Below, piece by piece: positions 4,670 through 64,000 of a stretch of DNA of 64,000 bases. The notes under the pieces were generated by a model that was given only the letters and a program-made list of their open reading frames with translations, made no database searches and was not told the origin of the DNA. Positions within the stretch are counted from its first letter, which is position 1. Every line of letters begins with the position of its first letter. Made by a program: the position numbers and the translations under genes. The stretch covers positions 128,001 through 192,000 of the forward strand of contig OY969811.1 in NCBI GenBank assembly GCA_963703315.1, written 5' to 3'. Source of the stretch: an uncultured cyanobacterium. Its GTDB lineage: Bacteria; Cyanobacteriota; Cyanobacteriia; Pseudanabaenales; Pseudanabaenaceae.

Positions 4670-4671
4670 AG

Positions 4672-7646: not shown

Positions 7647-8824
7647 CTAAAAATACGTGGTAAATCTGCGTTTGAATTCTGATACTCGCAATCGAAAAGA
7701 CTGCGGAAAAAACCGCAAAAATGTTATAAATACAATTGGAACAAAATATTGCCATCCGTAATAATTGATAAAACTTATGAATCCTTTAAAATATGAGTAT
7801 TCTGTTAAATGATAAGCTAACCATACACGCCAAGACAAGAGAGATTGAGGCGTAAACATTAGTTTAATAATATCAAGAGTTTTCCCTTCTTGAATCAGCC
7901 AATTCTGAGGGTTTAAACGAGAAAATTCTGATAACGTATTAAGGATTAAATACTGGTTGCTTACATATATTTTAAATCTCTGGTTCTGAACTTGAGTAAG
8001 ATAAATAAAGTCTCCAAGATAGTGAGGATATAAGTTAGATTTTGGATATCCAGTTGTATCAACAACACTTCTTGGTAAGCATACAAAATTACCGTTCAAC
8101 ATATCACATTCCTCAATTTTATTCTGGGGACAATTAATGGATTCAAATAGAGGTTTGTTTGGATATTGAAAGATTTGTTTGTTTTTTCGATGTCCTCCAA
8201 AAGCAATTTGCTGATGATTTGTAGATTGATAACCTTGATAACCAATGATCGTATTAATATTTTGTTTGCAAAAAACAATGAGATTATTGATTGATTCTTT
8301 TGCTACTAAACAATCATCATTTAACCAAATAAAATATTCTGCTCCTTTTTTATAGGCATATTCCATTCCCTTTTTAATTGCACCTGTCCACCATAAATTA
8401 CCATCTCCTTCCAATATAATCACTTCTGGATAAAGAGACTTGATAGCCTCACTAGTTCCATCTGTTGAACTATCATCGACAACAATTGCATAATATTTTG
8501 CGAGATCACCGTTGTCTTTTAATGTCTCTAAGCTAAACAATCATCATTTAACCAAATAAAATATTCTGCTCCTTTTTTATAGGCATATTCCATTCCCTTT
8601 TTAATTGCACCTGTCCACCATAAATTACCATCTCCTTCCAATATAATCACTTCTGGATAAAGAGACTTGATAGCCTCACTAGTTCCATCTGTTGAACTAT
8701 CATCGACAACAATTGCATAATATTTTGCGAGATCACCGTTGTCTTTTAATGTCTCTAAGCATTTAAGGGTGATATCTTTGCGGTTATGGACAGGAATAAT
8801 GATATAGACATTCTCTTTATTCAT
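7647..8824 (-). pseudogene. glycosyltransferase family 2, frameshifted by an internal 227-bp tandem duplication
   Basis: N-terminus MNKENVYIIIPVHNRK starts at 8824. 8306-8532 and 8533-8759 are identical; removing one copy gives a 951-nt intact ORF (316 aa). Confidence 0.8.
8306..8759. repeat. perfect 227-bp direct tandem duplication
   Basis: CTAAACAATCATC...AATGTCTCTAAG occurs twice back to back. Confidence 0.95.
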
Positions 8825-9644
8825 AGTCAATACCAAGCGATCGCATTTTTGCTTGCAACGCCTGCAACTTAGCCTCAGCCAAATCTGCACGATTTAGCTG
8901 CTCTTCTGCTTTAACACGTTCCTGCTCAGCTTTAACACGTTCCTGCTCAGCTTTAACACGTTCTTGTTCAGCCTTGATACGTTCCTGCTCAGCTTTAATA
9001 CGTTCTTGATTAGCTTTTTGAATTTCCCTTTGTGCTGCCTCTTGGGGTGTGGGTAACAACATACCTTCTAGTGAAAAATAGCGTAGTTCGCCATCATGAA
9101 TTCCGAGAAACATTCCTAGTACTTCACTCCACAACCAACCTTGAGGATTAGGTGTAATTGGCTGGTAGCGATTGATGTCTAGCCTAAATCCTGAGAATTC
9201 TAGAGTGTCAGGAGCAAAGTAGAAATATTCGGGCGTATGAAATCTTTCAGCATACAAATCTCTCTTTAAGGTGCGATCGACATTTGCGGTTGAGTCGGAT
9301 AGTAACTCGATAATTAGATCAGGATATCGTCCATCTTCTTCCCAGACTACCCATGATTTGCGTGGTGATCTAGTAGTGTTTTTGACTAGGAAAAAGTCGG
9401 GACCGCGAAAGTCATGATTTTTTAGTTGCTGGCGGCTAAAATAAATCGTGAGATTTGCGCCAATAAAAAAGTCATTGCGATCTTGCCAAGCCCATTCGAG
9501 ACAGGTTACAAGTAATAACAACTGCATATAATGCAAGGAACTTTCCATCTCAGGCTCATCACTCAAGAGTTGACTAGCATCGGGCATTTGCATCTCTAAT
9601 TCACGGGCGGTAATTGCTGCCATGTATGTACTCTCCTGATGCAC
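8817..9644 (-). CDS. Uma2 family (DUF820) endonuclease-like protein with C-terminal heptad repeats
   Basis: SDEPEMES..H, FRGPDFF, PDLIIELLSDST; tail (QERIKAE/QERVKAE)n encoded by 21-bp tandem repeats at about 8905-9015. Confidence 0.9.
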   Translation of the reverse strand: MHQESTYMAAITARELEMQMPDASQLLSDEPEMESSLHYMQLLLLVTCLEWAWQDRNDFFIGANLTIYFSRQQLKNHDFRGPDFFLVKNTTRSPRKSWVVWEEDGRYPDLIIELLSDSTANVDRTLKRDLYAERFHTPEYFYFAPDTLEFSGFRLDINRYQPITPNPQGWLWSEVLGMFLGIHDGELRYFSLEGMLLPTPQEAAQREIQKANQERIKAEQERIKAEQERVKAEQERVKAEQERVKAEEQLNRADLAEAKLQALQAKMRSLGIDYE

Positions 9645-9733
9645 TTTTACAGCGCTTTTCGTTCAAACCCGAATCAAAAATTCTTGGGATTCGTTTGATC
9701 GGAAATTGCTGTAATGATTATAACCATCATTAG

Positions 9734-10798
9734 TTATAGCTGCGATTCGATCGCCTGTAACAATTTTTCCTGTGTCCAATTTTGGTAGAGATGAGCCGCG
9801 ATCGCTGCTGCACCTGCGCCCACACCTTCTTTAACAAAGCCCTGCTCATAAGCCCGTAACTGCGGAAATTGGGACTTGGCAAAACTTAGTTGGGTTGCGA
9901 GTAATGGCACATCACGCACAGCTAAGGCTAGCTCCATCGTTTTACCTGTGGGGTCTTCGGCAACCCATCGGGTTGTGCCGATCGCGATCGCGTTAGGATG
10001 CCATGTGAGATTTTGATAGATAGCGATCGCTCTGGCTAGGGCATAGACTGCCAGCATTTGTGTACCGCCTGCGAGTAATACACCTGCATGACGACTGGCG
10101 GCGATCGCCATTCCTGCGACGACAATTTGCATGGGATCGCCTACGGCTGCCACAATTTCAAAAGGTGTTGCTTCTGAGGTGAGATGTTGTAATCCTGATT
10201 GCACGATTTCCCATTTTTGATCATGGTTACAGGTGGGATGGGAGCTATTGACTTTATCTTTCGCCTCAATTCCCAAAGCGGTTAGGACAGCTAAAGCTGT
10301 AGTTGTACCACCGACGACACATTCACTGAGGATGACATAGGCTCCCGATTGCGCTAACTTCTCTCCCCAGACTAATCCCTGTACAAATAATTGCAATACG
10401 GTTTCAATGGGTAATGCTTTCCCTGTACTCACACATTTTGCGGGTAACCCACCGAGGGCGATCGCTTTAGTTTCATCGGTGGGAGAAATTAATAAACCTG
10501 CGTCAAAGATAAAAAGTGGTAGGTCTTGGGCAGCAACAACGGCACGGGAAATTAAGACGGGTGATGCACCTGCCACTAGGGGCGGTAAAGGGAAGTTAAT
10601 ATTTTTGCCTGTAGCCAGAAATTCGGCATCGGCGATCGCCGTATATTTGCGGTCTTCAGGAGTTGCTCCTGCGGCAGAAATATTGGGGATTAAGCCTGTT
10701 TCGGTAAATCCCAACACACAAGCAAATACTGGGCGTTTAGCACGATAGGTTTTGAGCCAAGCTTTGGCTTTTTTGCGTTGTGTGTAGATTTTAATCAT
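9734..10798 (-). CDS. cobT: nicotinate mononucleotide-dependent phosphoribosyltransferase (CobT, cyanobacterial/archaeal type)
   Basis: ISAAGATPEDRKYTAIADAE, SECVVGGTTTA, LAGGTQM, YEQGFVKEGVGAG. Confidence 0.8.
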   Translation of the reverse strand: MIKIYTQRKKAKAWLKTYRAKRPVFACVLGFTETGLIPNISAAGATPEDRKYTAIADAEFLATGKNINFPLPPLVAGASPVLISRAVVAAQDLPLFIFDAGLLISPTDETKAIALGGLPAKCVSTGKALPIETVLQLFVQGLVWGEKLAQSGAYVILSECVVGGTTTALAVLTALGIEAKDKVNSSHPTCNHDQKWEIVQSGLQHLTSEATPFEIVAAVGDPMQIVVAGMAIAASRHAGVLLAGGTQMLAVYALARAIAIYQNLTWHPNAIAIGTTRWVAEDPTGKTMELALAVRDVPLLATQLSFAKSQFPQLRAYEQGFVKEGVGAGAAAIAAHLYQNWTQEKLLQAIESQL

Positions 10799-10855
10799 TG
10801 ATCTTTTATAGCAAATCCCGTAGGTTCACTTTGTAAATATAGCTGTACCAGAAGA

Positions 10856-10884
10856 CGAGTGGCGGCGCTTCGCGCCGCCACTCG
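10856..10884. repeat. palindromic REP-like hairpin
   Basis: CGAGTGGCGGCGC-TTC-GCGCCGCCACTCG; similar cores at 51093-51143, 52941-52991 and 59032-59076. Confidence 0.8.
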
Positions 10885-10901
10885 CCTATATATTCGCAAG
10901 A

Positions 10902-11042
10902 TTATTTCTGCTTACGACAGCGATCGCTACAATATTTCACATCATCCCAACATTTTTCCCACTTCTTGCGCCATGTAAAGGGTTTGCCACAAACTACACA
11001 TTCTTTGCTGGGGAGAAAAGATTTATTCCCTTTGTAAGCCAT
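10902..11042 (-). CDS. DUF2256 family small Cys-rich protein (not in the ORF track)
   Basis: Manual translation, 46 aa: [46 protein letters not shown]. Confidence 0.85.
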
Positions 11043-11131
11043 ATTTTTGAAAGATAGAGTATTGGTGTGAGGCTTTGCCTCACACCAATACTCTATAGCG
11101 TTTCCCCGTCAAGAATTGGGCAAGGACTAAG

Positions 11132-11226
11132 TAGCTGAGCATAATTAAAAACCAGAGCAAAACCTGTGGCGCACGCTGCGCGTGCGCCACAGGTTTTTGG
11201 GTTTTATATTTAATTGCGCTCAGCTA
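11132..11226. repeat. ~95-bp palindromic MITE/REP-like element, family A
   Basis: TAGCTGAGC...TGTGGCGCACGC-TGC-GCGTGCGCCACA...GCTCAGCTA; related copies at 14942, 40412, 42612, 48016 and a diverged one at 19358. Confidence 0.85.
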
Positions 11227-11238
11227 ATTATCATACTT

Positions 11239-12675
11239 TCAAGTATTTTGAATCGTATTCACCACTCGACGACGGGTTTCAAGAATTTGACTGATTTCGC
11301 GGGCAAAGTTGGGCTGGCGATCAATCATTTGATTCACGGCACTGGCGGAAATCATCATCACTTCTAAATCTTCAACAGCAGTAACGGCGATCGGACTGGG
11401 TTCACCAGAGAAAAGCGTCATCTCTCCAAAAAATTCGCCAGTCTTGACGATGAGAATTTCATGCTCTTTGCCATAGCGATCGCTGACGGTCATCATCGCT
11501 CGCCCTGCAATCACAATATATAAAGCATTACTACTATTTCCTTGCCAGATTACCTTTTCACCCGCACCATAATGCTGTAAATCAATTCCATCGGCATCAG
11601 AATCAGGATTTTGTAATGGCACAAATGCAGGGATTGATTGGAGGCTCTCGGTAAATTTTTTGGAAGTTCCCTCAGCATGGGAAGTGGGACCATGAAAATG
11701 ATAGAGGGTGCGAATCGGAAAGGGAATTGTGAGGCTATTGCGCTGGGCAGCATACCAGAGACGACTCATAAAGCGATCGCGAATTTCTTCTAGTTCAGCA
11801 TATTTATCGATAAAAAACTTCACTTCATAGGTAATCGATGAATCATCATAGGAAATTGTAAAAATTTGAGGTTCAGGATTTTTGAGAATTCCTTGAGTTT
11901 CTAATGCCGTATCGTGGAGAACGTGTTTGGCTAAGTTGGGAGGATCTTTATAGGAGAATCCCACACGAATACGCTCAGCATGGAGAGATTGCGGCTGACT
12001 AAAATTACGAATAATTTCATTGCTGATCAGCTTATGGGGAATAATCACCATCTCTCGCTCAAAGGTAATCAAGCGCACTGCACGCCAATTGATATCAATA
12101 ACTTGACCTTGAATGTCACCGACTTTGAGCCAGTCTCCCACCGAAAAGGGGCGCTCAAATAGAAGTGCAATCCCTGACATAACGCTGCCAAGGGTATCTT
12201 GCAAGGCTAAACCAATCACAATCGAACTCACCCCTAGAGCCGTGACTAGTCCTGCAAGGTCAGCATTCCAGACCGTTGCTAAGACGATCGCTGTACCTAA
12301 GAGAACTAAAAACAATCGAAATAAATCGATTAAGAGTTTCGGAACTCGCGCCCGCCAAGTATCCGCTTTTGCTTGTTCAAAAATGATGGCATTCAGGAGT
12401 GATAGCGCCGCGTGCAGCACACAAATCCAAAATAGAGTTTGGATGCTCTTAACGAGGTCATCACTAGCAGGACGTTGCAGCACATACTGCACAAACAGCA
12501 TGAAGGCAAACATTGGCAGTACCAAGTTCCGCACTACTTGCAAAGTGTTAGCTAGTGGTTTGCGCCGCTTTTGCAAGCGATAAATCACTTCACCAAGAAT
12601 AATTACCGATAGAGCTAAACCGATAATTAAGGCGATCGCCCAAACAAATAGATAACTGGCAGTAGGTTGTGGCAT
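11239..12675 (-). CDS. MscS mechanosensitive channel with C-terminal cyclic-nucleotide-binding domain
   Basis: TM helices, IGLALQDTLG, RPFSVGDW, IPFPIR; C-terminal GEFFGEM CNB motif. Confidence 0.9.
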   Translation of the reverse strand: MPQPTASYLFVWAIALIIGLALSVIILGEVIYRLQKRRKPLANTLQVVRNLVLPMFAFMLFVQYVLQRPASDDLVKSIQTLFWICVLHAALSLLNAIIFEQAKADTWRARVPKLLIDLFRLFLVLLGTAIVLATVWNADLAGLVTALGVSSIVIGLALQDTLGSVMSGIALLFERPFSVGDWLKVGDIQGQVIDINWRAVRLITFEREMVIIPHKLISNEIIRNFSQPQSLHAERIRVGFSYKDPPNLAKHVLHDTALETQGILKNPEPQIFTISYDDSSITYEVKFFIDKYAELEEIRDRFMSRLWYAAQRNSLTIPFPIRTLYHFHGPTSHAEGTSKKFTESLQSIPAFVPLQNPDSDADGIDLQHYGAGEKVIWQGNSSNALYIVIAGRAMMTVSDRYGKEHEILIVKTGEFFGEMTLFSGEPSPIAVTAVEDLEVMMISASAVNQMIDRQPNFAREISQILETRRRVVNTIQNT

Positions 12676-12728
12676 ATAGGCTTGTTAGTAATTGGAAGTA
12701 ATAATTGCCGAGATCCGCATGGCAATCA

Positions 12729-14846
12729 TTACTTAGTTTTTTTGAGTTGCCATGCTTGCAACAGATTTGTACCATCTTCGATCTTGGTGGCTAGAGGGGC
12801 AAACTCATAGAGATCGCCGAGACGGTTATAAATTTCCTGAGAGACTAAAATCGTTCCCTCTGGACAAGCGGATTTTAAAGCACTCGCAATATTGATCGTG
12901 TCGCCCCAGACATCGTAAAGGAATTTATTTCTACCGACAATTCCTGCCACGATATCACCTGAGTTAACTCCTAAACTGATATTCAAATGGAGGTTCCGTT
13001 CTTGGCTAAACCTTCGCACGATCGCTTGCATTTCTAGACCAAAATCGATCGCCCGTTTATCATGGTCGAGGTAAGGGACAGATAATCCACAAACTGCCAT
13101 ATAGCTATCACCGATGGTTTTAATTTTTTCGATGCCATAGCGATCGGCGGTTTCATCAAAGCTGGTCACGAGATCATTGAGAATACTCACAATTTCGTAA
13201 GCGCTCAACGAATCGGATAATTTGGAAAAACCTGTCAAATCAGAAAATATCACCGTTACATTAGAAATACTTTCCGCAATATTTTTTTCGCCTTGCTTGA
13301 GGCGCTTAGCGATCGCCGCAGGAAAGATACTCAGCAATAACTGCTCATTCTCACGATTTTTCTCTTCCACTAAATCGGTTTGATCGCGAAGACTTATCAC
13401 CATTGCATTAAAGGATTGAGCAAGCTCCCCAAATTCATCTTGACTCTCTAAAGTGGCGATCGCATCCAATTGACCAGCCGCCACTTTACGAGCGCTCTCA
13501 ATTAATTGATTAATCGGTTTCACAAAAAAGGATGCCATAACCATCGCTAATACCACGACTACCAGCATGAGCAGCGTTGCCGAAATTAATAACTGACGCT
13601 CAAAATCATAAATAGGGGTATAGGCTTCGGCTAAATCAATTTCTGATAAAACTGCCCAATTCAATCCTTCTATTTGTAAAGGAGCATAGGAACTCAGTAC
13701 AGGAATATCACGATAATCGCGAATAGTTTTAATACCCTGTTTACCCATTAGTGATTCCTCAACCGCAGGTGTACGCACAGTCTGTGCCAAGATCGAAGTC
13801 TTATATTGCCGAATCCGATTAATCGTTTCTTTATTCGCTCCCAAAGCCGTGAGGGTTTTAATATATTCTTCAGGGGTTTCAATCAAAAAGCGGGAAACCG
13901 ATCGCATTAGATAGTCTTGACCAACCAGATAGGTTTCACCACTTTTACCTAAGCCATCACCTTCCCATTTACGATTACCCGTCATCACATTATTAATCTC
14001 ATCCACTGGTACTTGGATGGCGAGAACTCCAATAAATTTAGATTGATTAAAAATGGGAGCCGCAATAAAGGCGGCAGGAGCGCCGTAGGATGGAGCATAG
14101 GATTCAAAATCAATAATTCGGGCATAGTCTTTTTCTTTGGAACGACGGATGGAGGCGAATAGACGGGCTAAGTTACTATCGTTATAAGCGCCAATAGTCA
14201 AACTAGTGGCAAAATCTGTCTCTTTATAAACCGTATAAACAATTCTGCCATCGGCATCAATCAGGAAGAGGTCATAGTAACCAAACTTCTCAATAATATT
14301 TCTAAAAATGGGATGATAACGCTCATGGAGACGGCTATATTCACTGCCATCATTGGCTTTGTCTAAGATATGTTTTTTGCCAACGGGTTGAGAATTTGCC
14401 GCGATGTAATGATATTGCAGATAGTTACTGGCGATCGATTCTGGTAAAAAAGAATTGAGAACGGGAGAACCCTGCTCTGTCTTGGCTAACTTAGGCAAAA
14501 ATTCATTTTGATAATAGGCATTAATTTTTGGAGATGCATCGGCGGGTAAGTTTGCAGTATCAAGCTGTCGATAAGCATTGGTAAATTCAGCGATCGCCGA
14601 TCCCATCGATGGATCATTGCTCAAAGTTTGAATGTGATTGCGAATGGTTTTGAAATAGGACTCAATTTGGTAGGCTTTGGATGCGCGGACACTGGTTAGC
14701 TGATTAAACACGCGATCGGTCAAGTTAGATTTTCCACTTTGATAACCCAGATATGCCGTCACGAGAATGGAGCTACTGCTAACCATTAACAACATCAAAA
14801 TCAGTTTTGATTTGATGCTCAGCCAATTGAATTTAAACCACTGCAT
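12729..14846 (-). CDS. class III adenylate/guanylate cyclase (TM-Cache-TM-HAMP-cyclase)
   Basis: Two TM segments, HAMP DEFGELAQSFNAM, FSDLTGF, EKIKTIGDSYM, YDVWGDTIN; likely start 14846. Confidence 0.85.
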   Translation of the reverse strand: MQWFKFNWLSIKSKLILMLLMVSSSSILVTAYLGYQSGKSNLTDRVFNQLTSVRASKAYQIESYFKTIRNHIQTLSNDPSMGSAIAEFTNAYRQLDTANLPADASPKINAYYQNEFLPKLAKTEQGSPVLNSFLPESIASNYLQYHYIAANSQPVGKKHILDKANDGSEYSRLHERYHPIFRNIIEKFGYYDLFLIDADGRIVYTVYKETDFATSLTIGAYNDSNLARLFASIRRSKEKDYARIIDFESYAPSYGAPAAFIAAPIFNQSKFIGVLAIQVPVDEINNVMTGNRKWEGDGLGKSGETYLVGQDYLMRSVSRFLIETPEEYIKTLTALGANKETINRIRQYKTSILAQTVRTPAVEESLMGKQGIKTIRDYRDIPVLSSYAPLQIEGLNWAVLSEIDLAEAYTPIYDFERQLLISATLLMLVVVVLAMVMASFFVKPINQLIESARKVAAGQLDAIATLESQDEFGELAQSFNAMVISLRDQTDLVEEKNRENEQLLLSIFPAAIAKRLKQGEKNIAESISNVTVIFSDLTGFSKLSDSLSAYEIVSILNDLVTSFDETADRYGIEKIKTIGDSYMAVCGLSVPYLDHDKRAIDFGLEMQAIVRRFSQERNLHLNISLGVNSGDIVAGIVGRNKFLYDVWGDTINIASALKSACPEGTILVSQEIYNRLGDLYEFAPLATKIEDGTNLLQAWQLKKTK

Positions 14847-14941
14847 ATAAAACCGTTTATTTACTTGAGTCAGCAAAGCTGGAAACGCTCTCAGTTTTAC
14901 AGGTAATGACTACATCTATATGGAACCAAATATACTGAATA

Positions 14942-15004
14942 ATATAAAAACCTAAAACCTGTGGCGCACGCGCAGCGTGCGCCACAGGTTTTAGGTTTTT
15001 ATAT
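14942..15004. repeat. family A palindrome, perfect 30-bp arms with GCA triloop
   Basis: ATATAAAAACCTAAAACCTGTGGCGCACGC-GCA-GCGTGCGCCACAGGTTTTAGGTTTTTATAT. Confidence 0.9.
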
Positions 15005-15104
15005 CAAATATCGCAAAATTAAAATCCTGCGCTTTATGCCGTACCTTATTTTTTCGGGTTATGTTCTAAACTTATAGTGACAACACCTCTATGGGTGTCC
15101 CGTT

Positions 15105-15210
15105 TAATAGCAATTTACGAAAGTGTGCCAACACTTTTATGAATTAAAACCCAAATCCAGTAAGGGTTTTCAAAACTAAAAATGGATACGCCATTTTTAG
15201 TTTTGGTATA
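15105..15210 (+). repeat. ~105-bp multi-hairpin dispersed repeat, family C
   Basis: ACGAAAGTGTG..ACACTTT, AAACCC...AAGGGTTT, AAAATGG...CCATTTT...GGTATA; copies at 27901-28006 (+) and 56524-56628 (-). Confidence 0.85.
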
Positions 15211-15243
15211 ACATTTTTTTAGTTTAAGCCGCGCACCAAAACC

Positions 15244-17223
15244 ATGCTAGGGAAAATCCTTGTAAGTCGTTATAAAATTTCTGAAGAATTAGGGCGTGGC
15301 GGTTTTGGTCAGACCTTCATTGCTGAAGATATGCACTTACCTGGTCATCCAAAATGTGTAATTAAGCAATTAAAGCCGAGGGATACACATACATTTGTTT
15401 TGGAGTCAGCCAGAAAGTTATTCGATCGCGAGGCTCAAACTCTCTATAAGTTGGGAAACCATAGTCAAATTCCATCACTCTTAGCTCACTTTGAGTATGA
15501 AACGGAATTTTATTTAGCACAAGAGATGATTGAAGGCAATGTCCTCAGCCGCGAAATCACATCTGGCAAACAATTAAATGAAGCCTATGTTTTATGGCTA
15601 CTGCAAGAAGTATTAGAAGTTTTAGCGTTTGTCCATACCCAGAATGTAATCCATCGCGATATCAAACCATCAAATTTGATTAAACGATTTGCAGATGGCA
15701 AGATTGTCCTGATTGACTTTGGCGCAGTTAAAGAGACTAGTTTACAAACAAGCGGGTCGCAAGAACATACAAGTATCACGGTCACAATTGGCTCCCCTGG
15801 TTATATGCCTGATGAGCAAGCTAACGGCAGACCCAAATTTGCAAGTGATATTTATGCAACGGGGATGATGTGCATTCATGCGCTGACGGGAGTAACGCCT
15901 AGCCAAATGCCCGAAGACCAAAAAACGGGAGAAATTGTTTGGCGCGATCTGGTTCCTCATCTTAATTCGGAACTGGCAAATTTTTTAGACAAGATGACGC
16001 GCCCACATTTTTCGCAGCGTTTTCAAAATGGAACTGAGGCTTTGCTCGCCTTACAGGATTTGCAAAGAGCAGATGCTTTCAGTACGACTATTATTCCCAG
16101 TCAACCAATGCAAGCAGCGATCGCCTCTATTAATGAATCTGATCAACCTAATTCAACTATTGTGCTGACGGAGCCAAATATTACACCTGTAGAGCAACCT
16201 TCAACTGTGATTTCGCCTGACCCTGTAGTTAGTGAACCTCCTCACACAACGATCACTGTACCCAAGTTTGTTGCAGCACAAAATGCATTGCAAGGTACTA
16301 CAGTTTCTAAGCAAGATGATCCATCAGTAACCAATGTTGCTGAAAAGCCGATCGCTAGCAAACTACAAGTCAAGAAGCCGTTTTTGATTATTGCTGCAAT
16401 CATCGCCGTGATCGCCGCAATTTCCAGTCATATAGTTTGGAAACAGTCTGAAGATAGTAAGCGCCTTGCTCAAGAGATAGAATTAATCAAGGGTTTAAAG
16501 GGAAGTCAAAAATATCAAGAATGTAGCGATCGCGCCAAGGCAATTTCTAGCAGTGCAGCCGATACGCCTGTGCAAAGTTTGCTAAAGGAATGTCTCAATG
16601 GTCTGAGTGAGATTGAAGGCAAAGCACAACTAACGGAAGCTCAAAAGTTAGTCAAACAGAATAAGCTAAAAGAGGCGATCGCGATCGCTACTAAAATTAA
16701 TCCCAATAGTTCTGTATATGCAGAGTCTCAGAAATTAATTGATCAATGGTCACAACAACTTTTAGGCATTGCTACAAAAAAATATCAAGAGGAAGGTCAG
16801 TTAAAAGAGGCGATCGCCTTACTACAGGAAATTCCTCTCAATACTCCAACAGGTAGAAAAGTCACTGCACTTACAAATGAATGGCAAATGCAATTTGAAA
16901 AAGAGAGTAAAGCTTTAGCATTAGCAAAAACAGCTTTATCTCAAGCCCGATGGAATGATGCGATCCTAGAATCAAATAAAGTGAAACTACCATTTTTAAG
17001 AATTAAGGCTACGGATATTACAAATCAGGCAAGAGCGGAAATAATTGCCGAAAACTCAGGTACTTACACTGTTTTAGATAGGAGTCCATTACCCCAGCCA
17101 GAGACATCTGTCAAATCAGAGCCATCTATTACAACTAATCCACCGATCACAACTAACTCACCTGTTAATCCATCTTCTTCACCTCAAAATGACTCTGACG
17201 GCTTAACTACAGGTAGTAGATAA
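15244..17223 (+). CDS. Ser/Thr protein kinase (Pkn2-type), membrane-anchored with extracytoplasmic helical domain
   Basis: LGRGGFG, VIKQL, HRDIKPSN, DFG, GSPGYMP; hydrophobic TM segment FLIIAAIIAVIAAIS. Confidence 0.9.
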   Translation: MLGKILVSRYKISEELGRGGFGQTFIAEDMHLPGHPKCVIKQLKPRDTHTFVLESARKLFDREAQTLYKLGNHSQIPSLLAHFEYETEFYLAQEMIEGNVLSREITSGKQLNEAYVLWLLQEVLEVLAFVHTQNVIHRDIKPSNLIKRFADGKIVLIDFGAVKETSLQTSGSQEHTSITVTIGSPGYMPDEQANGRPKFASDIYATGMMCIHALTGVTPSQMPEDQKTGEIVWRDLVPHLNSELANFLDKMTRPHFSQRFQNGTEALLALQDLQRADAFSTTIIPSQPMQAAIASINESDQPNSTIVLTEPNITPVEQPSTVISPDPVVSEPPHTTITVPKFVAAQNALQGTTVSKQDDPSVTNVAEKPIASKLQVKKPFLIIAAIIAVIAAISSHIVWKQSEDSKRLAQEIELIKGLKGSQKYQECSDRAKAISSSAADTPVQSLLKECLNGLSEIEGKAQLTEAQKLVKQNKLKEAIAIATKINPNSSVYAESQKLIDQWSQQLLGIATKKYQEEGQLKEAIALLQEIPLNTPTGRKVTALTNEWQMQFEKESKALALAKTALSQARWNDAILESNKVKLPFLRIKATDITNQARAEIIAENSGTYTVLDRSPLPQPETSVKSEPSITTNPPITTNSPVNPSSSPQNDSDGLTTGSR

Positions 17224-55323: not shown

Positions 55324-56526
55324 GTGAATCTTACCGACTTTACCAAAGCAAATCTTACCAAATCCAGCCTAGAAGGAATCAACCTCAAGGGAGCAGATCT
55401 CAAGCGCGTTAATCTTAGCGATGCAAAACTGGCAGGTGCAATGCTCTCTAAGGCAAACCTCACGGGTGCATTTCTTCATAAAACCGATCTCAGCCGCGCC
55501 ACTTTGGTGGAAGCAAATTTAGCTGAAGCAAATCTCACATCAGCTTACTTAATCAGTGCTGATCTGCAAAGAGCCTGCCTCAATGAAGCCTATCTAGTTG
55601 CCGCCAATCTCAATTCGGCAAATTTAACTAGTGCCTCTTTGATCAACGCCGATCTTAGTCTGGCGACTCTCACAGGAGCCTGTCTCAACGGTGCAAATCT
55701 CAGCCGCGCTAAACTAAATGGCACATTTTTTATCGAGTCCAACTTACTAGGAGCCGATCTTAGTGACTCTGATTTCACGGGCGCACTGATGATCAAGGCA
55801 AATCTCAGTGGTGCAAATCTCAGTCAAGCCTGTTTGATGAATGTCGATCTGACGGAAGCGAATCTCACAGGTGCAGAGTTACATGGAGTCGATCTTTGTG
55901 GCGCAATCTTAAATGAAGCCAATCTCAATGCAGTGGATCTCGTTCGCGCAAATCTGAGTGGTGGTTCGCTGAGTCGCGCTAATTTGGGCTGGGCAAATTT
56001 ACTGGGTGCAAACTTAGAAAAAGCAAATTTAGTTGGTTCTGATCTCAGTTGGGCAAATTTGAACGAAGCCAACTTGACGGAAGCTGACCTGAGTTGGACA
56101 AATCTGACGGGTGCATTTTTAATGAAAGCTAACCTCAGTGGCGCAAATCTCAATGGTGTAAATCTCTCGAATACCAACTTGAGCGGTGCAAATTTGAGCG
56201 GTGCAAATTTGATGGGTGCGAATTTAAGCGGTGCGGACTTAAGTAATGTGGATCTGCGCGGTGCTTACCTAATTCGGACAAATTTACATAATGCCATCCT
56301 CAACGAAGCAAATTTGACGGGTGCAAATCTCGATGAAGCTGTATTAAATGGAGCCAGTTTAAATCGGGCTAATCTCAATCGCGCTAATCTGACGAGGGCA
56401 AGCTTAACAGGCGCAAGTTTACAAGGAGCCTTTATGTTGTGGACTAATTTGAAAGGAGCTTTTATGTTGTGGACAAATTTGGACGGGGCAAATATGACAG
56501 GGGCGATTTTGCCAACGGACAAGTAA
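55324..56526 (+). CDS. pentapeptide repeat protein
   Basis: Almost entirely A(N/D)LxX repeats; GTG start. Confidence 0.9.
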   Translation: MNLTDFTKANLTKSSLEGINLKGADLKRVNLSDAKLAGAMLSKANLTGAFLHKTDLSRATLVEANLAEANLTSAYLISADLQRACLNEAYLVAANLNSANLTSASLINADLSLATLTGACLNGANLSRAKLNGTFFIESNLLGADLSDSDFTGALMIKANLSGANLSQACLMNVDLTEANLTGAELHGVDLCGAILNEANLNAVDLVRANLSGGSLSRANLGWANLLGANLEKANLVGSDLSWANLNEANLTEADLSWTNLTGAFLMKANLSGANLNGVNLSNTNLSGANLSGANLMGANLSGADLSNVDLRGAYLIRTNLHNAILNEANLTGANLDEAVLNGASLNRANLNRANLTRASLTGASLQGAFMLWTNLKGAFMLWTNLDGANMTGAILPTDK

Positions 56527-56628
56527 TACCAAAACACAAAATGGCGTAGCCATTTTGTGTTTTAAAACCTTTACTGGGTTCGGTTTTTAATTTACAAAAG
56601 TGTGGTCACACTTTCGTGAATTGGTATA
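56524..56628 (-). repeat. family C repeat (reverse orientation) overlapping the upstream TAA stop
   Basis: TAATACCAAAACACAAAATGGC-GTA-GCCATTTTGTG...AAAGTGTGGTCACACTTTCGTGAATTGGTATA. Confidence 0.88.
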
Positions 56629-56693
56629 AAAACCGCATAGAAATGGGCAAAGTCCATTCCTATGCGATCGCAAAAATATGGTGTGAAAGAGTA

Positions 56694-57563
56694 ATGAAAG
56701 CTAGAGAACTTGTTGATCGCTATAACCAAGGCTTTCGAGATTTTAGTGAAGTCGATCTCAGCCGTGAGAATCTCAGTGGTGCAAGCTTAACCGCGATCGA
56801 GCTAACTAATGCTGATTTGAGTGAAGCAAACCTGTCTTGTACTACTTTAAATGAAGCCAATTTATACGGTGCAAAGCTCAATACGACTATCCTCTATCGA
56901 GCAAGTCTGAGCGATGCAAATCTCGGTGAGGCACAGCTAAATGGTGCTAGTCTGATTAAGGCTGATTTGCATAGTGCTAGATTGGAACGGGCAAATTTAC
57001 GAGATGCGGATCTAACTGGCGCTAACCTCAATGCAGTGAGTCTTGCTAACGCTGACTTAACAGGAGCTAATTTAAGTTGTGTATCTCTGGTCGGAGCCAA
57101 CCTAGAAGGCGCAAATCTTGCTGAGGCATTTTTGAAAGGAGCAAATCTTGATGGGGCAAAATTAAACGGAGCAAATCTTCAAGGGGCAAATTTAAGTGGG
57201 GCAAGCTTTAGTGAGGCAAATCTGAGTCATGCAAATCTGAGTGCGTCTGATCTTTCTTGTGCGAATTTGTATGCAGCTAATCTTAGTGATGCTTTATTGT
57301 CAAAAGCAGACTTAAGTGGGGCAAATCTAAGTAATGCCAATCTGAATGATGCTGATCTACAGGAAGCTGACCTCAATGGTGCATTTCTAATTGACACTCA
57401 GTTAGGTAGAGCGCGTCTAGATGGCACAAATCTTAGTAAATCGAATTGCTATAAAGCTAATTTTCAAGGTGCATTTTTACTAAAAACAAATTTAAACGGA
57501 GCAAATTTGAATTGCACAAATTTCGCAGATGCTTCTGTACAGCCTGTTATACCCAGCCACTGA
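56694..57563 (+). CDS. pentapeptide repeat protein
   Basis: Typical cap MKARELVDRYNQGFRDF followed by pentapeptide repeats; the ORF-track start (56616) lies inside a repeat. Confidence 0.9.
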   Translation: MKARELVDRYNQGFRDFSEVDLSRENLSGASLTAIELTNADLSEANLSCTTLNEANLYGAKLNTTILYRASLSDANLGEAQLNGASLIKADLHSARLERANLRDADLTGANLNAVSLANADLTGANLSCVSLVGANLEGANLAEAFLKGANLDGAKLNGANLQGANLSGASFSEANLSHANLSASDLSCANLYAANLSDALLSKADLSGANLSNANLNDADLQEADLNGAFLIDTQLGRARLDGTNLSKSNCYKANFQGAFLLKTNLNGANLNCTNFADASVQPVIPSH

Positions 57564-58502: not shown

Positions 58503-59037
58503 TGTTGAGGCGCGAATGCAGAAAGCTGTAGAAGCGACCCAGCACAATTTTAATAGTGTGCGAACGGGGCGTGCTAATGCTTCGCTATTAGATCGGATTA
58601 CGGTGGAATATTACGGTGCGGAGACGCATCTCAAGGCATTGGCAAATATTTCTTCGCCTGATGCTACCACTTTGCAAATTCAACCTTTTGATCGCAGCTC
58701 GATGCGGGCGATCGAAAAGGCAATTTCGGAGTCAGATATTGGGTTAACCCCTAATAATGATGGCGTAAGTATTCGTCTCAATATTCCACCTTTGACTACC
58801 GATCGCCGTAAAGAGTTGGTAAAAATGGTTTCCAAACTTGCAGAAGAGGGCAAGGTTGCCGTGCGTAATGTGCGTCGTGATGCGATCGATTCGCTTCGCA
58901 AGCTAGAGAAGGCAAAGGAAATTTCGGAAGATGATTCTAAAAGTCAGCAAGAGCAAGTGGATAAGCTAACGGAAAAGTTCATTAAAAATATCGATAAGGT
59001 AACAGCCGAAAAAGAAAAAGAAATTTCCACAATTTAA
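58489..59037 (+). CDS. frr: ribosome recycling factor
   Basis: GTG start after GGAGG; RTGRAN.SLLD, PNNDG..IRL.IP.LT.DRRKEL, RNVRRD; overlaps pyrH by 14 nt. Confidence 0.97.
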
Positions 59038-59076
59038 AATAAAAGGCGGCGCATAGCGCCGCCTTTTATTTTAAAT
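59032..59076 (+). terminator. hairpin/terminator after frr
   Basis: 21-bp perfect arms around ATA, including the frr stop, with a T-rich 3' arm. Confidence 0.7.
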
Positions 59077-59101
59077 ATGTAAAAAAGAGGTAATTGTTCA
59101 G

Positions 59102-59446
59102 ATGGAAAATTTAGAGAAAATCCACAACTACCGCAACATTATCAAACAAATTCTTAGCCAACACGCATCTCATAAACCCTCGCATGGCGAAATTGAAATG
59201 CAAACTTTATTTGATACTGAACAGGATCGTTATCAAGTATTAGCAATTGGTTGGAATAACGAAAAACGGATCTATGGCTGCTCGATGCACCTTGACATTA
59301 AGGCAGGAAAAATCTGGATTCAAGCCAACAATACAGAAATTGATATTGCTGAAGCTTTAGTTGCTCAAGGAGTGCCTAAAGAAGATATCGTAATTGGCTT
59401 ACAACCTGCTTATCTAAGGCAATATACAGGATATGCGATCGCATAA
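59102..59446 (+). CDS. XisI family protein
   Basis: FDTEQDRYQV..GW...RIYG..HLDIK.GKIWIQ.N.TE..IAE.LV..GVPKEDIV.G. Confidence 0.9.
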   Translation: MENLEKIHNYRNIIKQILSQHASHKPSHGEIEMQTLFDTEQDRYQVLAIGWNNEKRIYGCSMHLDIKAGKIWIQANNTEIDIAEALVAQGVPKEDIVIGLQPAYLRQYTGYAIA

Positions 59447-59495
59447 ATGTTATGGCTAAAATAGATGAAGTATATGCAAAAGAGGATGTCCAAAA

Positions 59496-60275
59496 ATGCC
59501 CTCCCCCTTTCCTGGAATGAATCCTTATCTAGAAAATCCTGAACTATGGTCGGCTGTACATAGTCGATTAATTGTGGCGATCGCTGATGCCCTCGCTGAC
59601 ACCCTTAGCCTAGACTATCGTATTGAAATCGAAAAGCGCACTTATTGGAGCGATGAAACGGGAGACGATCTACTAATTGGGATACCAGACGTTTCTTTGC
59701 TTAGTCGAAGTAAAACAAGCAACGAAAAAAATAGTGCAACCGCAGTTGCTGATCGAACAGCGATCGCCCCAATTCGTGTTCTCTTACCAACATACGAGGA
59801 AATTAGCGAACGCTATCTAGAAATTCGTGAAGTCCAAACGGGAAAAGTGATCACTGCGATCGAGATACTTTCTCCTAAAAACAAAAAGACAGGTGAGGGA
59901 CGTGAAGCTTATCTCCGCAAAAGAAGGCGAGTTTTACAAACCCAAACTCATTTTATTGAAATTGATCTCTTAAGAATTAATCCATCCTTTTTACAAGGAC
60001 AACTTCCTGCGTCTGATTATCATATTTTGGTCAGTCGCAGTCACGAGCGTCCTGCTGCTGATTTACATGCTTTTTCAATTCGCGATCGCATTCCTAATTT
60101 TCCTATTCCTCTACGCTTAGGCGAACCAGAACCTACACTAGATCTGCAAATTTTAGTGGATCAAGTTTATCAGCGCGGACGTTATGACCTAGCGATCGAC
60201 TATTCTCAACCCACACAACCACGTTTAAATAGTGAAGATGAACTTTGGGCAAGCAGCTTAATCAAAAATGGCTAA
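59496..60275 (+). CDS. DUF4058 family protein
   Basis: MPSPFPGMNPYLE.P.LW..VH; IEILSPKNK; IEIDLLR; IDYS. Confidence 0.88.
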   Translation: MPSPFPGMNPYLENPELWSAVHSRLIVAIADALADTLSLDYRIEIEKRTYWSDETGDDLLIGIPDVSLLSRSKTSNEKNSATAVADRTAIAPIRVLLPTYEEISERYLEIREVQTGKVITAIEILSPKNKKTGEGREAYLRKRRRVLQTQTHFIEIDLLRINPSFLQGQLPASDYHILVSRSHERPAADLHAFSIRDRIPNFPIPLRLGEPEPTLDLQILVDQVYQRGRYDLAIDYSQPTQPRLNSEDELWASSLIKNG

Positions 60276-60303
60276 ATATTTTTAAAGTTGCTTTCCCCAA
60301 TTG

Positions 60304-61503
60304 CTATGACTGTAAATCAGGTGGCGCAAAATCAAAGGGCAATTCGTTGTTAATTGCTTGAATTTGTTTTGCTTCGTAGGCATTTACCTCATTAATATAA
60401 GGAACCAGAATTTGCTTAAGCCGATCGCGATAAAAGCGATGCAAACTATAATTTGGGGTTGCAGGAAAACCGCGCCGTTTTTTATGTTGTCCCCCTGCCC
60501 CTGGGTCAAAGCGCTTAATTCCTTGAGCGATCGCCCATTCGATCGGTTTGTAATAACAAGCATTAAAGTGCAAACAATCAATTTCCTGAACGCATCCCCA
60601 ATAGCGTCCAAATAACTGATCATCCTTACGAATACAAAATGACATTCCCACAGGTTGCGGATAATCTTCGATTTCACCAGCCACAAATACAAGGCGATCG
60701 CGGAAACTATGGGCTAAATGTTCAAAAAACTTGCGATTGAGATATTTACTTCCACCCCAAAATTTATTGCAATGATCGTTATATAGCTCGTACATATAGC
60801 CATAGAAATAATGGGGAATCTCTTCACCCGTATAAACCCGCATTGTGATACCCGTGCTTTCGACCGACTTGCGCTCTCGCTTAATATTGCGGCGTTGATT
60901 GGCATTGAAATTTTTGAGGTAATCATCAAAATCCGTAAACTCTTGATTTTCCCAAACATAACTATGGTGCATCCAAGTTGTGAAGCCCCGCGACTCCAAC
61001 TCATGTTTCCAACTGGGATCAACATATAAGAAATTACAGCCCGACATCTGATAGCGATCACAAAGTTTGTCAATCTCCGCCAACATCAAATCATAGATTT
61101 TTGATAACTCATCAGGACTATCACTCAGATCAGGATGCACCAAAAAACGATAGCCCACCGCAGGCGTAAAGGGAGCCATCCCCAATAACTTCGGATAATA
61201 CTCAATCCCCAACCGATAGGACAAATCCGCCCATTGATGGTCAAACACAAACTCCCCTTGGCTATGTCCCTTAATGTACAAAGGCGCAGCCGCCACCAAT
61301 ACATCCCCTTGCCAGACCAATAAATGACTAGGTAGCCACCCCTGCTGCGCGATCGCACAGCCTGAAGACTCTAAATTCGAGAGCCACTCCCATTCAAAAA
61401 AAGGAGTCGCCAAAGGTTTTGCGAGAATATTCCATACTTCAGCCTTGACCTTATTAACTGTATCCACCCAAGTCGTCGTATAGCGAGAAGCCTGTTGCAA
61501 CAT
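60304..61503 (-). CDS. FemAB-like GNAT protein (DUF482 family)
   Basis: PFFEWEWL, KGHSQGEFVFDHQWA, PFTPAVG, LFGRYWG, LHFNACYY, FDPGAGGQHK.RRGF. Confidence 0.88.
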   Translation of the reverse strand: MLQQASRYTTTWVDTVNKVKAEVWNILAKPLATPFFEWEWLSNLESSGCAIAQQGWLPSHLLVWQGDVLVAAAPLYIKGHSQGEFVFDHQWADLSYRLGIEYYPKLLGMAPFTPAVGYRFLVHPDLSDSPDELSKIYDLMLAEIDKLCDRYQMSGCNFLYVDPSWKHELESRGFTTWMHHSYVWENQEFTDFDDYLKNFNANQRRNIKRERKSVESTGITMRVYTGEEIPHYFYGYMYELYNDHCNKFWGGSKYLNRKFFEHLAHSFRDRLVFVAGEIEDYPQPVGMSFCIRKDDQLFGRYWGCVQEIDCLHFNACYYKPIEWAIAQGIKRFDPGAGGQHKKRRGFPATPNYSLHRFYRDRLKQILVPYINEVNAYEAKQIQAINNELPFDFAPPDLQS

Positions 61504-61650
61504 AGTAAAAGTCTTGGCAGTATTAAGTAAAATTGCTCAGTGTATATAGTTTAACAAATGCTAATGCCTAAAGTCATAACCACATCTTTATACTGTTTTC
61601 TATTTTGATGCTTTCAATTCTTGCATTTTTTAGATTGGTTTTGATAGGAC

Positions 61651-62641
61651 AGAAACTCATGAATTTATGTAAAGAAATAGTATTGTGTGATACCACCTGA
61701 GCTAATGTATATACATGGCACAAGAGACAAAGAACTCAATCCAAACGCAGTTCCAGCTTACATATTGAAATTAAGCTTTCAATAGGAGGAGGAAGCAAAA
61801 GAAAGAGTTAAAAGTCAAAATCGGATTGACGCTTTGTTGCTCCCCACGATTCTTCGATCTTTACGGGGCAGTGCTTATTCCAAAGATCGGTGTAGTTTTG
61901 ATAGCTTCGATAGCCTGTTCTATTGTTAAGGTCTTTTGAATTTCTCTCAATGTTTGCGTAGGTTTTGACCTAGCATTGTGATTAACGAGACAAACTTATA
62001 TAGTTAAAGAAATAAGGGCTACAGCGTACAGTTAATCAATGCCTAACACGTATTAGTAAACCTCTAGTAGAATCAAAATTGAATTATTTAAAAAAATGAG
62101 TCTAGCAGCCTTCTGCTAGACTCATCTCGTTTTGAGGAATATATTAAGTAGCCGCCAGAAATGCATGAATTTATGTAAAGAAATAGTATCGTCTAACACC
62201 ACCTAAGCTAATGTATATACATGGCACAAGAGACAGAGCAACTCAATCCAAACGCAAGTCCAGCTTTAATTTCAAGAGTAATCTTTAAAAAGGAGGAGGA
62301 AGCAAAAGAAAGAGTTAAAAGTCAAAATCGGATTGACGCTTTGTTGCTCCCCACGATTCTTCGATCTTTACGGGGCAGTGCTTATTCCAAAGATCGGTGC
62401 AGTTTTGATAGCTTCGATAGTCTAGATTGTTGTTAAGGTCTTCTGAATTCTTCTCAATGTATATTTAGGTTTTGACCTAGCATTGTGATTAACGAGACAA
62501 ACTAATTTAGCTTATTTAGCTTAAAAGACAAAGGCTACAGCGTACAGTTAATCAAAACCGAACACGTTACAGTAAACCTCTAGTAGAAACCTAATTGAAT
62601 TACTTAAAGACATGAGTCTAGCAGCCTTCTGCTAGACTCAT
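61651..62641 (+). repeat. diverged tandem duplication of a ~480-bp unit (61651-62125 and 62157-62641)
   Basis: Collinear alignment with a 109-nt identical core (61784-61892 = 62291-62399), an identical 30-nt terminal hairpin and variable internal segments. Confidence 0.95.
61715..62130 (+). ncRNA. candidate structured ncRNA, copy 1
   Basis: Candidate -10 TAATGT at 61703-61708, multiple predicted helices, terminal 13-bp hairpin at 62096-62125; no long ORF. Confidence 0.5.
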
Positions 62642-62650
62642 TCAGTTTTT
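62221..62650 (+). ncRNA. candidate structured ncRNA, copy 2
   Basis: Candidate -10 TAATGT at 62209-62214, the same helices with structure-compatible changes, hairpin at 62612-62641 followed by a T tract. Confidence 0.5.
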
Positions 62651-62762
62651 GGGGGAAATGCGAAAGCGCTGCTGTGACACCTTTGCTGTGAATGATCCAT
62701 CTTTCGGTAAAATAAACAACAATTCATTATTTTTAAAATCCTAACTTAGGGGTAAACGAGCC

Positions 62763-63512
62763 TTGCCTAAAATCGTTATCGCTGGCAACTGGAAAATGTA
62801 TAAAACCCAGTCCGAAGCCAAAGCATTTTTTTCGGAATTTCCTGCTCATCTTAAAGAAACCGCATCTCAGGCGGCGATCGCTGATCGGCAAATCCTTATT
62901 TGCGTACCTTATACCAATCTAGCGATCTTACAAACCGTCATACCAGCGATCGGTCAAGCTAATCTCAGTATTGGCGCTCAAAATGTCCATTGGGCAGAAA
63001 ATGGCGCATTTACAGGTGAAATTTCTGCACCAATGCTAGTCGAGCTTGGCATCAAATACGTGATTATCGGTCATAGCGAACGTCGGCAGTTCTTTGGCGA
63101 AAGCGATGAAACTGTGAACAAACGCCTCAAAGCCGCTCAAGCGCATGGACTAACCCCCATCCTCTGCGTTGGCGAAAGCAAGCAACAACGGGATGCCAAC
63201 GAAACTGAGTCTTGGATTTTCTCGCAGTTGGCTGCCGACCTGATTGATGTTGACCAAAACAATTTAATCATCGCTTACGAACCAATTTGGGCGATCGGGA
63301 CAGGCGATACCTGTGCATCGAGTGAAGCTAATCGCGTAATTGGACTAATTCGTAGTAAACTTACAAATCGCAACGTTACCATCCAATATGGTGGTTCCGT
63401 CAAACCCGATAATATTGACGAAATCATGGCGCAACCTGAAATTGATGGTGTGCTAGTTGGCGGAGCAAGTCTTGACCCAGCAGGCTTTGCCCGAATCGTA
63501 AATTATCGCTAG
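62763..63512 (+). CDS. tpiA: triosephosphate isomerase
   Basis: [52 protein letters not shown] start. Confidence 0.98.
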
Positions 63513-63693
63513 TTTTGCCTAAATTTCTTTTTTGTCTATACGCTGTTCATCCGTAAAAACAGCGATCGCCACAGCCGTCATAACCATAACAAAGCTTATC
63601 AAGTTATAAAAATTGACTTTATGAGATCTACTTTGTTATAATTATGTGCTGTTGATTAGAATACACAGCCGCAGATATACCAAATCATCACTT

Positions 63694-64000
63694 ATGCCCA
63701 CGATCCAACAGCTCATCCGCAGTGAGCGCCAAACCATAAATACCAAAACAAAGTCTCCTGCTCTCAAGAGCTGTCCTCAACGCAGGGGAGTATGTACGCG
63801 CGTTTACACTACAACACCCAAAAAGCCCAACTCTGCACTTAGAAAAGTGGCACGGGTACGCTTGACTTCTGGCTTTGAAGTCACCGCATACATCCCTGGC
63901 ATTGGGCATAACCTCCAAGAACACTCCGTTGTGATGATTAGAGGCGGTCGTGTAAAAGATTTACCAGGTGTTCGCTACCACATTATTCGTGGAACCCTTG
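63694..64000 (+). CDS. rpsL: 30S ribosomal protein S12 (3'-truncated by the window edge)
   Basis: Manual translation MPTIQQLIR...[31 protein letters not shown]...[19 protein letters not shown]. Confidence 0.97.

Follow-up and report, generated by a model that had tools for sequence, protein, structure and literature searches.

A tandem pair of structured RNAs upstream of tpiA belongs to an apparently undescribed family of stand-alone non-coding RNAs in cyanobacteria

Several bacterial RNAs work as decoys: CsrB and RsmZ do so through GGA-type words resembling the Shine-Dalgarno (SD) sequence, and 6S RNA, with which the 6S-like Ms1 is compared, does so for RNA polymerase. Staphylococcus aureus RNAIII is a long, stable RNA in which unpaired C-rich motifs, including three loops, bind SD sequences (PMC2790875, in the part used here), and ROOL, in the part of PMC12286853 used here, is reported to match 16S rRNA in abundance and to assemble through kissing loops. 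In Synechocystis, PmgR1 (Ncr0700) is described in the sections of PMC6596454 and PMC8682795 covered here as an abundant ncRNA of 250-290 nt whose targets are unknown. Here we analyze a 64,000-nt stretch of DNA from an uncultured cyanobacterium (the window; contig OY969811.1, host genome G000), which contains a tandem pair of units that are almost certainly real ncRNAs. They make up a family that is new, although its kind, the large and abundant RNAs of bacteria, is known; its genes stand alone, are absent from Rfam and appear to be undescribed.

The pair occupies the gap between a FemAB-like/GNAT gene and tpiA, the two neighbors named in the original prediction, and its features are listed in Table 1. 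The units are collinear (offsets 506, 507 and 516), extend over 410 nt (copy 1) and 420 nt (copy 2) to the end of the terminal hairpin, and are 85.6% identical. The shared upstream block, the TAATGT -10 element, the identical 109-nt core (starting at 61784 in copy 1 and 62291 in copy 2) and the identical terminal hairpins were all found as claimed. We infer that the + strand is transcribed from the promoter, the terminator and G-U patterns. A family profile finds only these two copies in the host genome. Elsewhere in the window there are two adjacent pentapeptide-repeat-like ORFs (55324-57563 and 59102-60275), and an XisI gene and a DUF4058 gene that come after what we take to be pyrH-frr. The tpiA gene (62763) starts with TTG in all relatives where the start could be located, 113-435 nt 3' of the terminator in those relatives.

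Table 1. Predicted features of the two RNA units (window coordinates)
Feature	Position	Strand	Remark
ncRNA copy 1	61715..62134	+	start and end predicted; 410 nt to hairpin end
ncRNA copy 2	62221..62649	+	predicted; 420 nt to hairpin end
Upstream regulator box, copy 1, TGAATTTATGTAAAG	61660..61674	+	center ~48 nt before predicted start
Upstream regulator box, copy 2	62166..62180	+	
-10 TAATGT, copy 1	61703..61708	+	six bases before ATGGCAC
-10 TAATGT, copy 2	62209..62214	+	six bases before ATGGCAC
PK1 5' strand GGCAC (helix 1)	61717..61721	+	pairs with 61871-61875, 225/225 cells
5' insertion domain (P2/P3 long helix; variable hairpin 61762-61785)	61722..61839	+	helices 2-3 paired 98%, 97%
SD-like AGGAGGAGG	61784..61792	+	conserved ORF absent behind
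Second pseudoknot, CCCC (61842-45) with GGGG (61865-68)	61842..61868	+	tentative
Core hairpin P5, loop with PK1 3' strand GTGCT (61871-61875)	61855..61889	+	99.4% paired
3' domain	61890..62049	+	helices 6-11; long irregular rod, internal loops, covarying apical hairpin
Conserved, largely unpaired motif GTAAACCTCTAGTA	62056..62069	+	between 3' domain and terminator
Intrinsic terminator, copy 1, CCTT loop	62096..62134	+	hairpin 62096-62125
Intrinsic terminator, copy 2	62612..62649	+	hairpin 62612-62641
Copy 2, PK1	62223-27 with 62378-82	+	
Copy 2, SD-like	62291-99	+	
Copy 2, P5	62362-62396	+	
Copy 2, 3' motif	62572-85	+	
Probable separate tpiA -10 TAAAAT	62708..62713	+	read from sequence; outside RNA

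The unit was matched in 45 of 47 other genomes of the same genus, Pseudanabaena (two only partly, at contig ends), with a second copy in ten of the matching genomes. At 30 loci, tpiA lay downstream in 28 and a FemAB-like gene upstream in 21. A search for 18-mer matches returned 35 records, of which 20 carried the unit (17 of them named Pseudanabaena) and 15 were unrelated bacteria without it. In a tree of 47 copies, nine of the 11 upstream copies clustered (support 93/93), as did eight of the 11 downstream copies (98/89); because the two kinds of copy group separately, the pair represents an old duplication that has been retained. The duplications at L020 and L075 probably arose independently. 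The two copies in the window are more alike than those of any other pair, which suggests gene conversion between them.

Searching with the terminal hairpin led to the sister genus (2/3 genomes), to family f23 (5/5), to a single genome of family f14, and to L123, a divergent metagenome contig. In both f23 and the f14 genome just mentioned, the unit lies before a gene without a Pfam family. Using this downstream gene as a handle, 46 of 61 f14 genomes were matched, and among the best 30 loci the unit was present in 28, being recognized by pattern in 26 of the 28 loci scanned and by a covariance model (R2) in the other two; the pattern scan left out L218 and L224, which are incomplete loci without the unit. 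A profile built from 24 f14 units gave exactly two matches in the host genome, the 3' ends of both copies (E = 0.004 and 0.005), as well as a match at the f23 locus L072 (E = 2e-15), and these matches tie the lineages together independently. The units are 244-374 nt long in f14 and 395-495 nt in Pseudanabaena. The downstream gene also varies by lineage, being tpiA, the membrane-like gene without a Pfam family, a glycosyltransferase-like ORF or a crystallin protein gene. At L072:2247-2762 and its relatives (f14/f23), a 170-aa hydrophobic protein without a Pfam family is encoded 3' of the RNA; it was matched in 36 of 61 genomes of the class and, with this query, was not found in f1. In g31 (L070:3818-4129 and L071:2225-2536) the RNA and an RRM (Rbp) gene are divergently oriented. 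The locus L150:1196-1450 (f25) has the same upstream box, extended -10 and gene context, together with a different 5' sequence, GAACCGC, which has a perfect complement ~60 nt further on; it gave no profile match, and is possibly a far-diverged family member.

Wider searches produced chance matches. Model R2 matched 8 of 13 f14 genomes and 0 of 137 others, but its sensitivity is limited, since it misses known homologs (0/13 in f1, 0/3 in f23), so that its negatives elsewhere do not prove absence; this applies to the sampled genomes of the order holding the PmgR1-bearing genus, in which no member was found. Over the order of G226, R2 gave weak matches in 6 of 151 genomes, none with the hairpin or promoter, and a deeper look in the same order yielded one match in five, all of which we ascribe to chance. 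The same verdict was reached for nine new matches from a weak model, R1, in 150 genomes (all without promoter and 5' partner) and for L085 and L086. A relaxed terminator pattern matched 16 of 401 genomes of the phylum, about as often as its reversed control, and the new loci inspected were chance hits, mostly in coding sequence. There were no matches to the terminator pattern in viral contigs, or to the unit in phage and plasmid collections.

Covariance models of Rfam 15, run over 59000-64000 of the window at E values up to 1, gave seven weak matches, of which only MIR405 touched the unit; lying on the terminator, it scored 25 bits against a gathering threshold of 102 and is not meaningful. 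Rfam gave no match in six homolog loci, and only a tRNA in five f14 loci. The original view that the RNA is not tmRNA, RNase P or 6S RNA was borne out, in that the unit had no such match and the host genome carries those genes elsewhere: 6S RNA (RF00013) at 1403156, a canonical gene whose model the unit did not match at E up to 1; tmRNA (RF00023) at 635007, the unit having no conserved frame; and RNase P RNA (RF00010) at 3427069. Identity by homology with ROOL, GOLLD or OLE was discarded for want of an Rfam match, and the f14 profile did not match three PmgR1 loci (L236-L238) at E up to 5. HDV-like ribozymes have a nested double-pseudoknot topology (P1-P2-P3-P1.1-P4); by inspection there is no room here for P3/L3 before the 3' strand of P1, and the 5' end lies at the promoter. 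Guide or omega RNAs, retrons, DRT RNAs and mobile-element ends were considered and set aside, the neighbors being housekeeping or unknown genes, as was a mobile element, with only two copies in G000 and tpiA synteny fixed in 28 of 30 loci. No match by eye was found among 33 abundant Synechocystis sRNAs in a part of the supplement to PMC6596454, and searches of full-text literature, mostly outside subscription papers, turned up no description of the family. Neither Pseudanabaena nor tpiA is mentioned in the portion of PMC12873609, on 409 novel cyanobacterial structures, that was covered; its supplement may list part of the motif.

When single units were folded, their energies were only modestly better than those of shuffles (z = -1.57 and -1.65), and the case for an RNA therefore rests on the homologs. 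We scored a 78-pair structure on an alignment of 45 copies, using 500 shuffles and slid pairings as controls. It was paired in 97.8% of 3,501 cells (slid controls, 30-42%), and 18 pairs changed on both sides compared with 6.7 in shuffles (equaled in 0 of 500), although these figures overstate the support because the structure was partly derived from the same alignment and the sequences are related. Among the stems proposed in the original prediction, the long-range helix, the hairpin formed by the variable segment, CGATCTTT/AAAGATCG and TAGGT/ACCTA hold in folding and across the 45 homologs. The stem TGATTAAC/GTTAATCA failed, being paired in 219 of 360 cells, with only six of 45 copies able to form at least seven of its eight pairs; GTTAATCA pairs instead with a conserved upstream TTGAT (helix 7). 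In helix 10, changes on both sides occurred at all five pairs. In the CCCC/GGGG pairing (helix 4), 96.7% of cells were paired, and only one pair changed on both sides.

The 5' pseudoknot (PK1), which had been overlooked, shows one-sided changes only within Pseudanabaena. Compensatory changes were found in f14 and other genera, and L123 carries a further variant. In f14 the first seven bases pair with the loop of a downstream hairpin, and among 22 units, whose 5' ends were anchored by promoter and alignment, 149 of 154 pairs were Watson-Crick (mean of 5,000 shuffles, 129; maximum, 139), with exchanges between A-T and G-C at positions 1-3 and between C-G and T-A at position 4 (17 versus 5). The corresponding 5' pairing in f23 makes a simple stem, not a pseudoknot. 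Comparison of homologs shows that the predicted 5' end of the family RNA forms an H-type pseudoknot with the P5 loop, and hairpins equivalent to P5 occur in g31, L123 and f14. The 5' insertion domain is a Pseudanabaena-specific expansion of a short P2 hairpin of f14. The covariation expected of a structured RNA was found, both in the 45-copy alignment and in PK1 of f14. The order of parts is common to all lineages: a box near -47, the -10, a 5' strand pairing with the P5 loop, the 3' domain with the long-range helix that closes it, a GT(A/C)(A/C)ACC motif and, after a linker, a terminator whose loop mostly contains CC. Relaxed forms of the 3' motif occur in g31, in L123 and in 22 of the 24 f14 units.

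The suggestion that the variable loops might be guide-like is not supported: in many homologs these segments, which form peripheral hairpins, are truncated or missing, f14 lacks the 5' insertion entirely, and the conserved neighbors include no Cas, TnpB or RT gene. Another reading is that the irregular 3' rod mimics an open promoter, making the RNA a decoy for RNA polymerase like 6S or Ms1. In Pseudanabaena the rod formed by the 3' domain includes a large internal loop, and the RNA, like those two, stands alone and appears to be abundant. This is nevertheless very unlikely, because the 6S model does not match (E up to 1), a separate canonical 6S gene exists, and the rod is not kept family-wide, the f14 3' domain being branched and variable in length.

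No reading frame was conserved across the 45 copies. An ATG stands at the predicted start in 33 and is absent in 12; frames opened by it range from 6 to 71 aa, with 15 aa in 22 copies, and the 71-aa frame occurs once, in agreement with the earlier observation, confirmed in the ORF list, that it is intact in copy 2 only. None of the other start codons in the 45 copies keeps a fixed frame length, and the f14 RNA starts without an ATG. A conserved start and frame of the kind expected for a small-protein mRNA or type I toxin was looked for and not found. The frequent ATG and 15-aa frame are what a leaderless peptide message would give, and the capacity of ACTCA to pair with the 5' arm of the terminator in all 45 copies would suit a leader or attenuator of the downstream gene. 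We consider a cis element or peptide message of this kind highly improbable, since the ATG is missing from 12 copies and from f14 and the frame length is so variable, while the downstream gene differs by lineage and in f14 has a promoter motif of its own, and duplication together with two terminators would not be expected of a leader. The invariant ACTCA lies near the 5' end (61733-61737) and its partner at 62097-62101; in L072 and other f23 loci the equivalent is the AACTCATCAAT loop. This pairing, which is without covariation, could be an antiterminator or a tertiary contact.

Each copy is preceded by promoter-like signals that recur in homologs. The upstream box was found in all 45 Pseudanabaena copies. 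Of 22 f14 promoters, 13 have an equivalent AA(C/T)TT..(A/G)TTAAA box with its center between -46 and -49; a further site occurs at -66 to -68 in six. The -10 has the form TAA(C/T)(G/T)T in 39 of 45 copies, and f14 has an extended -10 at equal spacing; a generic sigma70 scan flags neither promoter because there is no -35. RpaB binds HLR1, two (G/T)TTACA(T/A)(T/A) repeats, and its activating sites lie near -51 (PMC6525291, in the part used here). The position of our box (-50) fits HLR1, but the best match reaches only 12/16 here and 10-12/16 in f14. A matrix of the box scanned over the host genome gave 11 sites, among which no clear regulon was seen. At L236-L238, 60 nt upstream of PmgR1, there is a TGAATAAAGTTAAAT box 29 nt before the -10, resembling the family box and one base shorter, which perhaps has the same regulator. 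This PmgR1-like box and its spacing hint, no more, at dark or low-light control of the RNA. PmgR1 resembles the family in its TGAA..GTTAAA box 29 nt before the -10, and in some strains by also carrying an AAGGAGG-type word toward the 3' end; it differs in having neither the 5' RGAYAC/loop pseudoknot nor a matching terminator, and in occurring in other lineages.

At the other end, the two terminator hairpins have 13 bp, are identical between copies and are followed by T-rich tails. The helix is paired in 100% of the 45 copies, and a near-identical sequence occurs in f23 (5/5) and one f14 genome. Taken jointly, the existence of the RNA, its predicted boundaries, its pseudoknot and its lack of an ORF are well supported. 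The central claim of the original prediction, a duplicated, independently transcribed, structured RNA, is upheld by homolog covariation, the non-conserved ORF and the lack of an Rfam match; its guide-like loops and one stem were not, and it had missed the pseudoknot, an SD without an ORF, and the spread over several cyanobacterial families.

Part of the stretch is contained in 24 sequencing runs from 15 studies, 23 of them recorded as RNA; 19 of the 24 contained less than 0.2 of its sequence words, and four runs (from four studies), including X9 of those 19, were placed as contigs. Depth in X1 was 1,348-16,728 over the RNA, compared with 59-80 over tpiA and ~1,100 over rpsL (contigs, strains pooled), and in X2 was 600-2,391 over the RNA compared with at most 10 over tpiA; such contig depths, having no strand, ends or DNA control, summing other strains and coming from runs chosen for containing the stretch, cannot rank genes. 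In X1 the depth rose from 8 to 16,728 at the bin starting at 61724, and was 82 between the copies and 108 after copy 2. Contigs of X2 were identical to 61763-61918 (depth 2,540) and 61889-62066 (depth 847), both in copy 1 and with a sequence present in no other locus compared; for copy 2 the exact-match RNA contig covered the first 37 nt only. One exact X1 contig, of depth 82, spans 62014-62257, from terminator 1 to promoter 2, representing either low read-through or DNA. There is moderate support for the RNA being, apparently, very abundant in freshwater and sediment metatranscriptomes.

The best-kept sequence of the family is an SD, defined here by the SD consensus, with no gene behind it. 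AGGAGG was present in all 24 f14 units (2.4% in shuffles) and was their most conserved 6-mer; this set left out two near-duplicates of L196, which carry it as well. The word is separated from the closing helix that follows by 34-64 nt (mostly 38-46), with no consistent local partner seen, and in 15 of 22 units no start codon follows within 4-13 nt, the other seven opening unrelated frames of 4-25 aa. The 16S 3' end of the host genome is GATCACCTCCTTA, and f23 has TAAGGAGGTG, which is perfectly complementary to the 16S end over 10 nt. In Pseudanabaena the SD was found in the 3' domain in 0 of 45 copies, but at least 6 nt of the consensus occurred elsewhere in 42 of 45, nearly always in the 5' insertion, indicating that the word was kept after relocation. 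The exceptions are three Pseudanabaena copies with less than 6 nt, and L123 and the f14 paralogs L234 and L235, which are without AGGAG. The latter (L234:1501-1900 and L235, genus g102) are a second, unlinked paralog that keeps the 5' pseudoknot and 3' motif, with AAGGAGG replaced by a TGTCTCA/TGAG(G/A)(C/T)A helix, as in Pseudanabaena; from these sequences, two subtypes of the family may exist.

The explanation that we favor, tentatively, is that the RNA is a decoy for translation, occupying the 30S subunit or an SD-binding factor, a preference based on the SD being the best-kept sequence, the best-kept structure presumably protecting the 5' end, and the RNA appearing abundant. Each unit would act as an independent gene whose product is a stable, untranslated RNA of very high abundance, with transcription started by the upstream activator box and -10 and ended by the intrinsic terminator. 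RNases J and E act in decay from the 5' end; with its first bases locked in the H-type pseudoknot, the RNA could be shielded from them and so accumulate. The SD without an ORF would most likely be the working part, binding the 16S anti-SD and holding the 30S subunit or an SD-binding protein, so that translation would be damped when the upstream factor dictates, perhaps in the dark or when energy is low; both ribosome binding and the link to light are inferred. CC-rich loops of P5 and the terminator could mask the SD reversibly.

In favor of a decoy are the invariance of AGGAGG in f14 and its retention in Pseudanabaena, the lack of a start codon in most f14 units, the perfect f23 complement, the double changes at PK1 positions 1-4, and the high contig depth over the RNA compared with tpiA. 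The decoy logic recalls CsrB and RsmZ, which were rejected as an identity because CsrA (PF02599) is absent from G000 (99.67% complete; a control search was positive in 3 of 14) and the RNA has one SD word, not many GGA loops; nor, therefore, is there a CsrA to account for GGA motifs. Against a decoy, the SD is predicted to be mostly paired (mean unpaired 0.36 in f14, 0.45 in Pseudanabaena), the exceptional units above do without it, and the depths are subject to the limits given. Its conservation could also reflect an intramolecular kiss with the CC-rich loops, as Pseudanabaena lost the 3' SD and the CCTT of the loop together. A stricter version, in which this pseudoknot-capped, hyper-abundant RNA would exist solely to sequester 30S subunits by presenting an ORF-less SD that its own C-rich loops switch, seems to us doubtful.

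The main rival to the decoy is a trans-acting regulator of the RNAIII/RsaE type, in which the tail of the P5 loop, the GTAAACC(C/T)TAG motif and the terminator loop would bind SDs of mRNAs, AGGAGG being only an intramolecular cap. Unpaired C-rich motifs, including a terminator-type loop, are indeed present, as in RNAIII, though the UCCC word itself is not; 19 of 24 f14 units have CC at or within the terminator loop, the 3' motif (22/24) is predicted to be more open than average (0.60 versus 0.42), and binding of SDs by C-rich motifs has a precedent in the part of PMC2790875 already cited. However, when the 3' motif was scanned against 3,461 start regions of one genome, the best energy was -19.8 and the tenth -16.2 kcal/mol, one of eight shuffles beat the real motif, and the ribosome-binding site of tpiA offers only ~6 bp. 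The family also has no sequence relation to RNAIII or RsaE in Rfam, no ORF, a 5' pseudoknot and no target found, and its best-kept word is an SD, not an anti-SD, the C-rich motifs being less conserved. A base-pairing regulator is possible, then, but on balance unlikely.

The complementarity of these loops to the SD allows one further reading, a scaffold or RNA-only assembly like ROOL, GOLLD or OLE, in which CC-rich loops would kiss AGGAGG between molecules, possibly with a protein such as the RRM (Rbp) protein from whose gene the g31 RNA diverges. Like those RNAs, the family is stand-alone, multi-domain, pseudoknotted and apparently abundant, and it is expandable by insertion (244-495 nt); kissing has its precedent in ROOL (PMC12286853, same part). 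But the family RNA is smaller and simpler, with far fewer helices than the ornate RNAs, and lies on cyanobacterial chromosomes, no phage or plasmid having matched it, and because the SD is invariant while the loops vary, there is no covariation for the kiss. We therefore regard an assembly as improbable.

This work adds a large, covariation-supported ncRNA family to the cyanobacteria. That it was not found among sampled genomes from the order of the PmgR1-bearing genus may explain why it has escaped cataloging, and its apparent abundance in freshwater and sediment metatranscriptomes means that it could serve as an activity marker. Two features of the family lend themselves to sharp tests: the pseudoknot at its 5' end, as a naturally occurring stability device in bacteria, and a perfect SD that lacks a gene. 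If the decoy reading is true, it would represent a new way to throttle translation. If the RNA proved to be dedicated to that role, several families of filamentous cyanobacteria would possess an RNA equivalent of hibernation factors, comparable to 6S RNA in the case of RNA polymerase.
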